NCBI GenBank assembly: GCA_039621445.1
Contig: CP154954.1
Coordinates: forward strand, 19,826,642-19,890,641
DNA from: Euglena gracilis
Taxonomy: Eukaryota
Direction: 5' to 3'
Length of the DNA stretch: 64,000 nucleotides
In this document: positions 1,215-23,580 of the stretch, one piece after another
How the letters are laid out: every line of letters begins with the position of its first letter
How positions within the stretch are numbered: the stretch's first letter is position 1
Translations under genes and position numbers: made by a program
Notes under the pieces: model-generated
The model's input: only the letters and a program-made list of their open reading frames with translations
Databases searched by the model: none
What the model was told of the DNA's origin: nothing

Positions 1215-4200
1215 CTCCTGAGCTACTGGCCCAAGGTGCGGGTGGGGGGTATCTTCGCGGGGCATGACTTCTACTTTGCTGGCCACTTCCTCCTGGGGAA
1301 AGACGACTGGCGGGGCGATCTTTTCGGTGCTGTTTTCCACGTGCAACCTTTTCCTCGATTTTTTCAAGTCATTTGTTGCGTCTGCTCTTGTGCCTCTAAA
1401 AGCGAATTTCCTTTTATTTACACTTTCAAGAACCAGAGAGGAGAATTTTGGTTGGTTTGTTGCCAGATGACAGTAAAAGGTATTCCTTGGCAGTCCTGGA
1501 AAATGAGGCTCATTGCCCTGGCAACCCAACAATCCCATCTCGATGTCCATGAAAAAGCTGCACAGCTGTGGTTAGGGTTCGGGTTAAACCCTAACCCTAA
1601 CCCTAACTTGGTCCCTCGAAAGCGCCACTTTTCGGTGCCGATCCGAACCCTGACCCCATCCCTCCAATTAAACGCGGAATCTCCGCATCCAACCATTTCT
1701 GGATCCGGCGCAATTCTGGGGCACCGCGGGACCGAAACAAGGGGAACGTCGGACACGGGGGTGCACCTGCCCCTTGCCAACAGTCAAATATCCCCTGATC
1801 TGGCAAGTGCATGTTTTTTTTTGCTGGTTTCTTTGTGATCCGGGTTGAATATTATTTTACAAATGTCAGATTCCACCCCCCCCCGGGGGGGCTTGGCCCA
1901 CGCCATGATTGACTGTAAGGCTGGGGGCCAAGTTTGCATGTAGAAGGGGGGCAAGTGCCTGGGGGGGGGAGGTCGAGCGGGGTGGGGAAGGGCGCCCCCC
2001 GCCGGTCTCTTTGCCACAACGGGGAGCGGCACAAGGAGGCCGTGAAGGGCGCGGTGGTGGAGTTCGCCCGGAACTCAGGTGGCCGAAATGGCACAAAACT
2101 GGTGGTCACGCCCTCTTTTGGAATGCCCAGGAGTTGCAGCCCCACGGCTGATGATGGGAAGTCCCATGGGTGGTGGGGCGGGGGGGGGGGGAGGGCGGCA
2201 CCGGCCCTGCCTGTTTGTCCCGGGATGGTTCAGGTCAAGCTTTCTCAACGCAGTGTTGGCGGGTGGGCGGCCCCCACAGTCGTTCCCCACAGCACCGCCC
2301 CCGTGCAGCCTTTTCAGCCCCGTGTTCTTCCCCGGGGTGTTCTGTGGCTGGGCGGATGGGGAGGGCCACCCTAGTTGCAGGCAGCCAGCCACCAACCCCA
2401 ACCAGCCCTTCAAAGTTCTCCGCAACCTTTTGCTCAATCCAGGAGTTCGCCAATCGGTGGCTTAATTTCGATTTGGCGTTGTTTTTATTCGAGGGTTGCC
2501 CGCTTGGCCGAGCTCAATGTTGCTGGGCCTTTGCAGAAAATTTGGCATGCAAAGGTCCAAACCTTTTCAGCAGAGGGTTGGAAGCTTGTGCCTCTAAGAT
2601 GATCCCTGTTGTAGACATCGATGGGTGGGTGGGAACCCCCGCACATCCGATTTTCCCTGAGACCAAGCACCTCCAGCGACAAATCTGACAAATTCTGACA
2701 ATCGTGACAAATCCCGACATATTTTTTTTGGCCTCTAGATGTGTGGGTTCCGACAAATCTTGTCAAATCCCGACAACACTCAAAATTATTTAAATTATAA
2801 AATCATTTTGCAAAAATAAATTTTGGACAAAAGGATGGACGAAGTTTCCCAAAAGGAATGTTTATGACTTTCCTGAATTTCTTTGCTTTTCTTTGTTTAT
2901 GCTTTTTGTCTTCACGGGTTGTTCTAAAAATGAGAGCCGTTTTCTTTGTTGTTGGTTCAAAAGGAGCTTGTTGTCAGTGAGGATAAGTTTTATGTCTCAA
3001 CAACGATAGAGCCACTATTTCCATCAAGAAGACAGTCAAGAAGTCAAAATGTCATTAATTTTCCTTGTTTCCCGCAGACATCATTTTGCTTGAATTTGAG
3101 ATTAAGAAGCTTGGCATTGTCCAGCAGCTGGTTGAAATTGCTATGTAAGTGGATTTGCATTAGAGAACTGGTGCATGTGGCAATTCTCATGAGAATCGAC
3201 CATTTCCAACATTAATGTTCTATTTCCCAGGCCTCCTTTTTTCCTCCACAGTTTTATCTCTGTGCATCAGAGATGAATGTGTTGTAAATGCAAAACGTAG
3301 GCATCGTAAAAAAGTATCAGTGGTCCTTGGACAATTGTGGTATGCAATCCAAGAAATCATTGCAAGGAGGATGATTTTAGGATGCTAAGGTTTGACAATT
3401 CTTGCAATTCCTGGCAAAGACAATAAAATATCATGTGTCTGAAGGTGATTTCCTGTATGCCCGCCCCCCTGTCTTTTTGTCCACGACCCTCACTCATTGT
3501 GGAAGATGAACCTTTGCTGTATCAACAGCCGGCCCCTGGTCCAAGGCAAATGTCAGTGGTCGTTGGACAAGTGGGTGCAGGGGGGGATATGAAGCGCGCA
3601 TATTCTTCGCATATTTTGCATATTTAGCACATGTTGCATTTTTTTTGGCCAAAAAGTGCCTGTTGTGTATATTTAGCACATATTCCGAGAGTTTTCAGAA
3701 TTTCTGCCACATGTTTTACTCATTCCATGTCTTTTGGGTCCGTTTGAATTTTTTCCAACCATTTTAAGCCATTTGCTTTCATCTCAGGCAGTGCATCTCG
3801 CACTTAAGCTTTTTTTGGTCGATGTGCGCATTTTCGCAAACCGACCAAAAACCACTTTGAGCGCCAGCGTTACAAGGGGTGAGAGCAAGAGGCAGCAGGA
3901 TTGGACAAAATACGAGCGATTTCTCATTTTTGGCACTGACTCTCCCAGGAATTATGTGTTTTTTTGCTGTTTTTTTTTAGGTTGGAATGTCACGAAAACC
4001 CCCGGACCTATCCCCCCAAAGTGAAAAAAACGCCGACAAAAACTCCAAAACCATTGTACCGCCACCCCCATTCACTGTGTGACAGCTGCCAGCGCCAGGT
4101 GGTGCTCTGGGGGTGGGGTGCAGGTCCATCCCTTTGCTTGCTTTTTGAAGCTTTGTGACACGTTGTGGAGGTTTTTGAAGTTGGTTACGAAAGGAGTGGA

Positions 4201-22000: not shown

Positions 22001-23580
22001 CCAGTGGGTAATTCTCAAAGACTATGGAACGCAGTCCGCAAAACCCTGACCTGGTTGCTGCAAAAGGCTGCGGGTATTCTCTCCGGGGAAGTTCCCAAAG
22101 CAGTTCGAGGTAACACCTGGCTGACGATGGCGTTTCGGCTGCTGTTGCACTCTGAGGCACAGGGCAGCGAAAGCACCGATGAGCGGTGATGGAGTTCTCG
22201 CATCGCCACTGCCAAAGCATGGACTTTGCCGGCTGTGCTGTTGAGGTGCTGGGGGGTGGCCGCCCCACAGCCGGGCGCTCTGCCAGAACGGGGAACGGCA
22301 CCGGGAGGCCGTGAGGGGGGCGGTGCTGGAGTTCGCCCGGGGACGGTCCCTCTCCATTTGCGTCACGAGCGGGGCGGCTGCTTCCGCAGTTTGGCAGGCA
22401 CCCTCCACCCCTGTACTCTATGTTTACGGTGTAAGGGGCCAGAAGCCCATCTTGAATATGGGGGACCCCAGGCCAGGTGGCCGACTCCACTGCCCCCTCT
22501 GTGGTGCCCAACTGTCGCTCTGATAACCTCACCCCTTTTGTGCAAACCAATATGATGTGAAATTGGCCTGCGGGGCCTTGCGCGCTACCCTGCGTATGAT
22601 TGTGTGTCTGTCAACTCCGCAGTTGGGTCCAGGCAATTAATTGCTTAAGCACTGACCAACCCCCCCCCCCCCGGGGGGTGGGTGACTGGTTTTTTCAAAG
22701 TGACTGACTGGTTTTTGACCCGGACCCCTCCCCCCCCGGGGGGGGGTCGGCCAGGAGTGGGCAAAAGTGGCTTGAGTGACCCCGGCGCCGAAGGCGCCGG
22801 AAAAATTTTTTGGGCCTAAAATGGCCTAAAGTGACTGGACAGTGGCCGTTTTTCTGAGTGGCCGACCCCCCGGGGGGGGGTAGTGACTGGCTGGTTTTTT
22901 GAAAATGAGTGACTGACTGGTTTTTAAAAAAGTGAAATGCTCCCCCCCCCCCCCCCCCCGGGGGGTCGGTAAGCAATTGTATGGTTGGGTCCTCGTTTGA
23001 GGGTAAATTTGAAAACTGATGGACTTCTTTTCATTGTGACACAGCCCCTGTCTCCCCGGGCCTGCAGGAGTTCTACCCGACGTGGCTAATCCGCAAGCCC
23101 CTTGCTGGGGCCATGCCCAAGCCAGGCTGCATGGATCCTGGCCGGCTTCCTTCCTTCGTTCATCAACCTGCCCCACCTTTCGAACGAGTGTGATACAGAT
23201 TGGCACACCATTGCGAGCGACACAGAGTTGTAGTTGTGCTGATGTGCCATTCACAAGAGCGCACTTCAAACACTTGCGTGCTGTGCAAGGCTCAACCACA
23301 GTTGCTCTTAATACACAACCAACCTCTTTTGCAGTCCCTCGTACAATGCCAGAAGCGGTGCCCAAGAAAGGAAGCTCAATCATTTGGAGGAAGAATGAGT
23401 GCTGAATTGATGCCCGAGGGGCTTTTTTTTGTTCTTCACAGTTTGAGCTGTCTTACTTTTGTTTTGTTTTTGTTTTGTTGGGGGAATGGGGCTGACAGCT
23501 GACGTGGCGGCAACATACGAGGAGTACTCCCCGATCTTCTTGCGTCGCGTGAAGAAGCGGTCAGGGCTCTTCCTCCCTGG
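19054..23580 (+). CDS. Class I SAM-dependent methyltransferase (Methyltransf_24-like), paralog B, multi-exon
   Basis: In-frame exons ~19054-19131, 19532-19683, 21397-21470, 21670-21747, 21858-21933, 22273-~22368, ~23058-23101 and 23517-~23575 give REQIGALLEAENLTVGAELGVQEGLFAAQTLSQWPACRRYYLVDLW...VFLRMSTSEAANHIPDESLDYVYIDARHDYCGVSEDLRNYWPKVRPGGIFAGHDF...GAVLEF...YPTWLIRKP. It carries the ELGVxxG SAM motif and the DxxYIDAxHxY motif. Start and stop are unresolved. Confidence 0.9.
20532..20693. repeat. (CAG)n/(CAT)n trinucleotide microsatellite in an intron
   Basis: Direct read; lies inside the intron ~19684-21396. Confidence 0.97.
21751..21852. mobile_element. hAT-like MITE forming non-conventional intron 21748-21857
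   Basis: TIR caggcttgtgctta / taagcgcaagcctg. Perfect 8-bp TSD ggcccaag at 21743-21750 and 21853-21860. Interrupts the YWP|K codons. Confidence 0.9.
22646..22981. repeat. Dispersed MITE-like repeat with GTGACTGACTGG motifs and Cn/Gn palindromes (copies ~16073-16335, ~46792-47095, ~51857-52180)
   Basis: All four copies share cactggccgacccc / gtgactgactggtttt / ccggcgccgaaggcgccgg-like blocks. Confidence 0.85.

Follow-up and report, generated by a model that had tools for sequence, protein, structure and literature searches.

Introduction

Nonconventional introns are a class of euglenid introns that leave the transcript as circular RNA after the conventional ones, through non-spliceosomal machinery (PMC11282704). 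In Euglena, the code that directs their splicing has been defined by knock-in experiments: a strict 3-nt spacer precedes CAG, CTG precedes a 5-6-nt spacer, a purine opens the acceptor exon, and the regions next to the two motifs are base-paired, with an A-to-T variant at the acceptor exon start still spliced in one intron (PMC12501133). This report concerns a 64,000-nt stretch of the Euglena gracilis genome (NCBI GenBank assembly GCA_039621445.1, contig CP154954.1, positions 19,826,642 to 19,890,641 of the forward strand), which is called the window and numbered from its first letter. It carries two tandem Methyltransf_24 genes on the + strand, paralogs A and B, and an intron of B, termed B5, whose core is a MITE (miniature inverted-repeat transposable element).

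The descent of nonconventional introns from MITEs was proposed by Milanowski et al. in 2014 (PMC3935182), at a time when, by its account, euglenid genomes had yielded no identified transposable element, and the proposal is repeated in PMC11282704 and PMC12501133. In the literature searched, its earlier basis consists only of the inverted-repeat ends of introns and of repeats resembling a target-site duplication (TSD). These flanking direct repeats are treated either as a nuisance, giving 'slidable introns', or as 'TSD-like' (PMC12501133, PMC3935182, PMC4770533). The available parts of these three papers give no repeat length, named element family, or filled-versus-empty site. In the literature searched, which for PMC12501133 means sections of the main text, the MITE origin stands as a hypothesis only, no Euglena MITE family or 8-bp TSD is named, and the idea developed below that the element carries the splicing code is not stated. 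The hypothesis predicts features found in the window: ends that are inverted repeats, flanks that resemble a TSD, and insertion at positions not occupied before. What it lacked was an identified element; the window supplies candidates and two spliced exonic insertions.

Introners are transposon-derived spliceosomal introns found in Micromonas, Aureococcus, dinoflagellates, and Fritillaria (PMC11282704). The likeness to the case described here is that an exon receives a non-autonomous DNA transposon that can be spliced out immediately, the TSD helps to define the cut, and the reading frame is restored. The difference lies in the cut itself: introners use GT-AG or relaxed spliceosomal sites that are partly made by the TSD, whereas B5 has no GT/AG and is cut by distance from a paired CAG/CTG stem. 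Introners are reportedly also treated by Huff et al. (2016).

Intron B5 and its empty site

B5 is a 110-nt intron of paralog B at YWPK/VRPGG (slashes mark joints), a position at which paralog A is uninterrupted. It consists of a 102-bp element and one copy of the exact 8-bp direct repeat that flanks it; the element starts CAGGCTTGTGCTTA and ends TAAGCGCAAGCCTG, an inverted repeat. Evidence for its removal comes from the transcript protein P0001 (EG_transcript_18523), which reads YWPK/VRPGG across B5, and from RNA reads, which were mapped to 20700-24400 only, so that evidence on paralog A is at the protein level. The RNA joint 21742>21853 skips 110 nt, slides by 8 nt, and is present in 18 reads of RNA data set X21, in four of X24, and in one RNA contig of X15 (depth 176). 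No DNA contig of X9 removes B5, DNA cover of its 5' flank being absent in X9. Template switching at the 8-nt repeat was considered as a source of this joint; three independent RNA data sets and the open reading frame (ORF) of a separate transcriptome argue against it.

In paralog A, the transcript protein P0004 (EG_transcript_27551) reads YWPKVRVGG without a break, and the codons hold a single GGCCCAAG. This 8-mer occurs four times in the 64 kb, at 1228 (A), 21743 and 21853 (B), and 25819 (unrelated), while TACTGGCCCAAGGTGCGG is present once in the window, at 1224. A first-pass annotation, made from the letters alone, had described a TSD-flanked intron in B, its empty site in A, and a reciprocal pattern of intron presence and absence between the two genes. 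A string search found every string that it quoted in place, the transcript proteins of both genes and the RNA reads of B bear out the reciprocal pattern, and the single GGCCCAAG together with the unbroken P0004 confirms the empty site.

B5 belongs to a MITE family that has many copies and makes 8-bp TSDs, and it arose by insertion, as its TSD, its terminal inverted repeat (TIR), and its family membership show. Its terminal repeat matches that of element 52597-53024 at 13 of 14 positions, its nucleotides 12-84 are about 70% identical to the 5' end of element 17297, and its nucleotides 23-102 align without gaps to the last 80 nt of element 57957-58240 (73.8%, E = 1e-12). The duplex of its ends has an energy of -42.4 kcal/mol (z = -4.3); the fold of the whole intron (-81.8 kcal/mol) also pairs the ends, with a whole-fold z of only -2.15. 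The family membership and the exact 8-bp repeat strengthen the earlier call of a TSD.

The family comprises ten elements in the window (Table 1), five with 8-bp flanks matching at 8/8 positions and five at 7/8. Their aligned termini share CAGG..T.T.CTTAAG followed by C-run/G-run palindromes, and their first letters are CAGGG in four, CAGGC in five, and CGGGC in one. Among 156 CAG...CTG inverted-repeat pairs in the window (at least 10/12 complementary, 40-3,000 nt apart), the identity of the 8-nt flanks is bimodal: 8/8 in four pairs, 7/8 in two, 6/8 in one, and at most 5 in 149. Flank repeats that are exact number four at length 8 and none at lengths 4-7 or 9-12. A less strict scan returned seven elements, whereas 20 dinucleotide shuffles averaged 0.7 and never exceeded 2, and the reversed sequence had none; three more came from searches by motif and profile, giving ten in total. 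DNA words have a depth of 10^5 to 10^6 over the C/G-run parts, versus about 130-170 in single-copy bins, a k-mer-level sign of very high copy number that is not family-specific. The elements have TIRs and a TSD of fixed length, and they are multi-copy, short, and non-coding. Apart from B5 and element 52597, the eight elements, one of them within intron B7, probably lie outside recognisable coding sequence. The ORFs around 56.3-58.9 kb hold nothing recognisable, and elements 56947 and 57957 there may be either intronic or intergenic.

MITEs of the hAT superfamily have 8-bp TSDs and short TIRs; the hAT terminal motif is YARNG, and the hAT transposase contains a hAT dimerisation domain. The window family resembles them in its 8-bp TSD, its TIRs of about 16 nt starting with CAG, its lack of coding sequence, its length of 100-430 bp, and its many copies. 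It is unlike them in that no transposase or autonomous partner was seen in the window, where a Pfam search covering the 142 stop-to-stop ORFs with a length of at least 130 aa had no match above cut-off and one sub-threshold match, CLZ (22.3 versus a cut-off of 26.7). Since 8-bp TSDs are made by other superfamilies too, assignment to hAT may serve only as a lead.

The splicing code and the target-site duplication

With donor 21747 and acceptor 21858, B5 reads ggccc/aag-CAG...CTG-ggccc/aag. In this frame (intron 21748-21857), CAG stands at +4..+6, CTG at -8..-6, and the acceptor exon starts with A. Like the nonconventional introns of euglenids (PMC12501133, PMC3935182, PMC4770533), B5 shows every feature of the code and is removed from the mRNA. 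None of its nine frames gives GT..AG, and neither B5 nor element 52597 has a GT/GC..AG frame, the mark of a spliceosomal introner.

The two spacers of B5 are the inner parts of its two TSD copies, 3 nt of one and 5 nt of the other. Because 3 + 5 equals the 8 bp of the TSD, the cut removes the element and exactly one TSD copy and restores the codons that preceded the insertion. This is where B5 departs from the literature on euglenid introns (PMC12501133, PMC3935182, PMC4770533), as far as the available parts go: the repeat is exactly 8 bp, the sum of the spacers, and belongs to a multi-copy element. We infer that the element brings the whole splicing code along and that an insertion arrives already spliceable.

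In the mechanism described here, a non-autonomous 102-bp transposon inserted in the YWPK/V codons and duplicated its 8-bp target, GGCCCAAG. The element starts with CAG, ends with CTG, and has pairing TIRs. Cutting at the distances set by the code, 3 nt ahead of CAG and 5 nt past CTG, drops the element with one TSD copy and restores the original reading frame, and the RNA reads and P0001 show this outcome. The insertion in B would postdate the A/B duplication, and A would represent a never-occupied site. This full account, a 102-bp MITE insertion in B after the duplication that is spliced through the 3 + 5 = 8 match, is likely correct and leaves the polarity of the A-only intron A3 open. Its central part, the gain of B5 after the duplication, is very likely.

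A second exonic insertion follows the same pattern. Element 52597-53024 has the terminal repeat CAGGCTTCTGCTTAAG and the TSD GCGGCTAC on both sides, and it interrupts ...VYDVLVDVRDA/RLPQSSLHP... in an unrelated gene. The transcript protein P0121 (EG_transcript_27538) reads DVLVDVRDARLPQSSLHPQYQ straight across, so that the element is exactly removed from the transcript. Its end duplex has an energy of -34.6 kcal/mol (z = -4.5). In the code frame 52593/53030, CAG and CTG are correctly placed, and the acceptor exon starts with T instead of a purine. The host gene lies at 52124-54370 on the + strand, matches EG_transcript_27538, and has DVLVDVRDARLP and, further on, GLPNAGKSSLL motifs. We take these motifs to recall a circularly permuted GTPase of the YlqF/MTG1 type; Pfam gave no match on the ORF pieces.

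A wider proposition is that the nonconventional splicing code is itself a signature left by the insertion of a single type of DNA transposon, and that the very large load of nonconventional introns in Euglena and the short 'slidable' repeats at most of their junctions are largely decayed insertions. This is a serious possibility, held tentatively, and extending the model to nonconventional introns in general is hypothetical. Among the 13 transcript-supported introns, the junction repeat is at least 8 nt in the two MITE-type introns and 0-4 nt in the other 11. Those 11 show no residual 8-nt repeat, with 1-5 of 8 positions matching, and thus lend no support to extending the model to older introns.

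Intron B3 of paralog B starts and nearly ends with the identical, partly palindromic 11-nt CCACGGCTGTG (19688-19698 and 21380-21390). Its flanking 8-mers, CCGCCGCC and CCGCTGAC, match at 6/8 positions at a one-base offset; they may be a decayed insertion scar or a product of chance.

Polarity of the private introns

A3 is a 5,050-nt intron of paralog A at FARN/RSL, supported at the protein level by P0004, which reads EFARNRSLSICVT. At the same position B is continuous: P0001 reads EFARGRSLSICVT, one piece of an RNA contig covers exon 7 of B, and no RNA joint falls inside 22273-22366 among the 15 joints listed out of 77. In the splicing-code frame, A3 occupies 2073-7122 (2072/7123) and reads act-CAGG...CTA-agaaca, then A. 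CAG is at +4..6, CTA at -9..-7, and the acceptor exon starts with A, so that A3 shows the code of PMC12501133 in part, all except for CTA in place of CTG. Its geometry is of the same kind as that of B5; in A3 the first spacer is 3 nt and leads to CAG, the stem is imperfect and 19 nt long, and the last spacer is 6 nt. The stem arms lie at 2076 and 7098, and the duplex of the intron ends has an energy of -32.7 kcal/mol (z = -5.2 versus 200 shuffles). The code frame coincides with the stem-ended intron of about 5 kb in the first-pass annotation, which is thus confirmed. A second private intron of A, A0, had gone unnoticed there; it ends 21 nt upstream of the B5 site, and B has no intron at its position, where RNA is continuous over 21669-21742.

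A nested transposon accounts for 1,865 of the 5,050 nt of A3, which would have swollen to 5 kb by this later insertion. The nested element and its second copy between A and B (about 1.7-1.9 kb, 5-bp TSDs) form a family distinct from the 8-bp MITE family.

A3 looks older than B5, and its polarity is open with a modest lean to gain in A, since B has retained B6, 94 nt upstream of the site, and B7, 27 nt downstream. A3 lacks the marks of insertion seen in B5: it has no TSD (3/8 in every frame), no further copy of its ends lies in the window, where the 19-nt 5' arm finds no other match within 3 mismatches, and CTG is replaced by CTA. The competing history, in which A3 and likewise A0 are ancestral and were lost from B, would make B5 the sole gain and the pattern something other than reciprocal gain. 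The missing TSD, the degenerate 3' motif, the nested 1.9-kb transposon, and the lack of a second copy of the ends all fit it, being signs of age or at least not of recent insertion. Against it, the retention of B6 and B7 requires a precise loss of a single intron between retained neighbours, and the ancestor would have needed six introns in about 100 codons, two of its exons being as short as 21 and 24 nt. Ancestral A3 and A0 are thus possible, though less favoured than gain. Gain of A3 after duplication, which the first-pass annotation had asserted, goes further than the site allows: A3 is real and confined to A, and without a TSD or a second copy of its ends gain and loss look the same.

For B5, the chief alternative is that the element inserted before the A/B duplication and that A later lost it precisely, by recombination with reverse-transcribed spliced mRNA. 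Complementary DNA (cDNA)-mediated loss usually removes neighbouring introns too, and A keeps A0, 21 nt upstream of the empty site, and A2, 75 nt downstream. All eight spacer bases of the TSD copies match their exonic twins although synonymous divergence (dS) between the genes is 0.43; the chance of this is calculated at about 0.2 if B5 predated the split. Nonconventional intron gains are, moreover, very common in euglenid tubulin genes (PMC3935182).

Several points weigh on the other side. Precise cDNA-mediated loss in A would leave an identical single GGCCCAAG, and the site alone cannot time the insertion because splicing regenerates that single copy. B5 is only 70-74% identical to other members in the window, which is compatible with an old insertion and gives no recent date. 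Selection for splicing may have preserved its intact stem. Since a limit of one TSD mismatch was part of how the ten elements were found, their intactness says little about age.

Taken together, loss of B5 from A is unlikely. Insertion in B after the duplication rests on parsimony, the retained flanking introns, and a rough decay argument, and it is the more parsimonious timing, not a proven one. The first-pass annotation had spoken of direct evidence of gain after duplication; the insertion of B5 stands, and the wording was too strong, since cDNA-mediated loss in A leaves the same site.

It is highly improbable that B5 is an ordinary nonconventional intron whose 8-nt repeat reflects chance or microhomology and not a transposon scar. 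Short direct repeats do flank 84.4% of the introns of Euglena agilis (PMC12501133). However, only the two MITE-type introns among the 13 have a junction repeat that long, eight other elements in the window have the same ends with 8-bp flanks matching at 7/8 or 8/8, flank repeats occur at length 8 alone, and the interior of B5 aligns to other members. An assembly artefact, with A and B as collapsed or duplicated haplotigs or a chimeric join, has next to no probability despite the at least two B haplotypes expressed in the RNA reads, as the identity of A and B over 88 codons is just 79.5%, each of the two genes matches a transcript of its own at 100%, and 14 DNA runs contain 89-91% of the words sampled from the B stretch.

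Shared introns

Three intron positions are common to A and B: A2/B6, A4/B7, and A5/B8. The first two have transcript support in both genes, and A5/B8 is placed by homology only. The RNA joint of B6, 21933>22273, is carried by nine reads of X21 and the X15 contig, and that of B7, 22366>23064, by 11 reads of X21 and seven of X24.

The first-pass annotation had described these introns as having homologous ends and unrelated interiors. The common positions and the lack of extended interior similarity hold; homology of the ends is weak for A2/B6 and does not extend to the others. In A2/B6, 15 of 200 shuffles score as high at the 5' end and 7 of 200 at the 3' end. For A4/B7 and A5/B8, end homology is not demonstrable, with 23 to 150 of 200 shuffles scoring as well. 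The interiors of A2/B6 reach a local score of 11 against a shuffled maximum of 15 and are not above shuffles; those of A4/B7 (20 versus 17, probably through G/C runs) and A5/B8 (14 versus 13) are marginal, and extended interior similarity was not found in any of the three. At a dS of 0.43 neutral sequence should still align, yet these interiors lack extended similarity. This implies either a much faster turnover of intron sequence than of synonymous sites or a constraint on the latter.

The methyltransferase paralogs and other features

Paralogs A and B are tandem, sister genes predicted to encode S-adenosylmethionine (SAM)-dependent methyltransferases. PF13578 matches P0001 at 54.5 bits (gathering cut-off 26.3), which places it in Methyltransf_24, and the domain is precomputed for P0004 too. 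A tree built from 18 homologues joins A and B as sisters with support of 99/97, within a clade holding three further E. gracilis paralogs (EG_transcript_14607, 16810, and 21334). Over 88 comparable codons dS is 0.43, nonsynonymous divergence (dN) is 0.19, and identity is 79.5%. A blastn comparison of 1-12000 with 17001-26000 gives exactly four blocks of A/B homology. The sister relationship, the two Methyltransf_24 genes, and the distinct transcripts agree with the tandem-paralog reading of the first-pass annotation. The introns of both genes are euglenid nonconventional introns, in which pairing of the intron ends in the pre-mRNA sets the cut sites.

Three EG_transcript_* proteins (EukProt names) match window exons at 95-100% identity, which by their naming fits E. 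gracilis or a very close relative. Residue 154 of P0004 corresponds to window position 1215, and residues 1-153 lie upstream, with no window match by tblastn. In the same search P0004 is 100% identical to the window over 1215-1310 and 2006-2074, and across 8839-8901 it agrees at 20 of 21 residues. Exon 5 of A is positioned by homology alone (DEAATSEVY...), and P0004 stops before it.

Paralog B is expressed as at least two haplotypes. About half of the X21 RNA reads differ from the window at 21739, 22303, 23506, and 24172 (11 of 22 reads at 21739 and nine of 16 at 22303), and the 22303 variant is present in P0001 (Leu195). The RNA reads and the X15 contig align from 21392 onward, in exon 4 of B, and their preceding 30 letters correspond to the 3' end of exon 3. 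A literal reading at 21396-21398 gives an in-frame TGA where P0001 has Arg, and the reads list no alternative letter for 21396. Two explanations are possible: a CGA>TGA change at a CpG of the window allele, in which case B would be a null allele that is still transcribed, or a true joint at 19683/21397, which gives CGA. The donor side of B3 (exon 3 end, 19678-19687) lies outside the RNA-mapped stretch.

Further observations concern the 3' part of B and its introns. Positions 23909-23920, 12 nt inside intron B9, encode RSSQ, residues 262-265 of P0001 that are absent from all exons, and are probably a micro-exon. The main RNA joint 23559>24074 (26 reads of X21, four of X24) skips them and shifts the frame relative to P0001. 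Loose ends at 24233-24237 (31 reads of X21, one X15 contig) match the window near 24575-24600 and point to an extra intron, to about 24572, that lies 3' of the P0001 stop codon. Within intron B3, a (CAT/GAT)n microsatellite spans 20420-20690, including a (CAT)n array at 20574-20685. Short arrays of AAATGGCC/GGCCATTTT-like repeats lie at 1-30, 1141-1190, 5690-6000, 8050-8600, and 15000-15800 and recur in introns, in spacers, and inside some MITEs.

Table 1. Features of the two paralogs, their introns, and the transposable elements, in window positions. Exons and introns are in leftmost placement, with slidable nucleotides in brackets after exon ends.
Feature	Position	Strand	Remarks
Paralog A	1215..9614	+	3' part only, gene cut by window edge; matched by P0004 (EG_transcript_27551)
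A exons	1215-1308(+2), 2004-2071(+3), 7122-7147(+1), 8844-8919, 9423-9614	+	last exon putative
Intron A0	1..1214	+	A-only; 3' part, at MED/LLSYWPK; 5' end beyond window
Unoccupied site in A	1228..1235	+	single GGCCCAAG within YWPKV codons
Intron A2	1309..2003	+	695 nt, slidable GG; position of B6; end duplex z = -2.7
Intron A3	2072..7121	+	A-only; 5,050 nt, slidable AAC; FARN/RSL
Transposon nested in A3	3783..5647	.	1,865 bp, 27-nt TIR (CTTAGGCGGCGCATCTCGCACTTAAGC), 5-bp TSD TTCAT
Second copy of A3 transposon	11483-13175		AATCA flanks; 85.2% identity over 1,693 nt (blastn)
Intron A4	7148..8843	+	1,696 nt; position of B7; P0004 reads ICVT/RDLFPSW
Paralog B	17665..24145	+	ten exons; P0001 (EG_transcript_18523) by tblastn, RNA joints
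B exons 1-5	17665-17727(+4), 19022-19132, 19533-19678(+4), 21392-21469(+1), 21669-21742(+8)	+	
B exons 6-10	21853-21933(+1), 22273-22366(+1), 23064-23137(+3), 23499-23559(+1), 24074-24145	+	
Left TSD copy of B5	21743..21750	+	GGCCCAAG
B5 element	21751..21852	.	102-bp MITE, core of B-only intron
Right TSD copy of B5	21853..21860	+	GGCCCAAG
Intron B6	21934..22272	+	339 nt; position of A2; 12-bp terminal stem; z = -2.5
B exon 7	22273..22366	+	continuous at A3 position
Intron B7	22367..23063	+	697 nt; position of A4; contains MITE 22630-22983
Family member	10114..10285	.	172 bp, TSD 7/8; between A and B
Family member	17297..17601	.	305 bp, TSD TCCCCTGC 8/8; 64 nt upstream of B start codon
Family member	22630..22983	.	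inside intron B7; GTTGGGTC on each side
Family member	43740..43964	.	225 bp, TSD CCCTGAAC 8/8, TIR 12/12
Family member	45240..45487	.	248 bp, TSD 7/8
Family member	52597..53024	.	428 bp, TSD GCGGCTAC 8/8; inside coding exon of unrelated + strand gene
Family member	56947..57361	.	415 bp, TSD 7/8, TIR 12/12
Family member	57957..58240	.	284 bp, TSD 7/8; 3' 80 nt collinear with B5
Family member, weaker	59362..59658	.	297 bp, TSD 7/8, TIR 9/12
blastn block 1	A 1228-1317; B 21853-21942		86.7% identity
blastn block 2	A 1984-2071; B 22252-22340		83.1% identity
blastn block 3	A 7125-7153; B 22344-22372		96.6% identity
blastn block 4	A 8832-8879; B 23052-23099		81.3% identity

Implications for euglenid introns

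The window offers concrete support for the 2014 hypothesis that euglenid nonconventional introns originate from MITEs. New to that hypothesis are a defined element family with a fixed 8-bp TSD, two cleanly removed exonic insertions, and an empty site in a sister paralog, together with the arithmetic link of 3 + 5 = 8 between the insertion scar and a splicing code determined by experiment. This link suggests that the splicing machinery is tuned to, or derived from, the handling of a transposon with an 8-bp TSD. The question of how nonconventional introns originate, and of why they are so numerous in Euglena, open since 2014, becomes testable genome-wide. If the code is indeed the insertion signature of such a transposon, every new exonic copy would be born precisely spliceable, a parallel to the introners of other protists with a different chemistry of excision.

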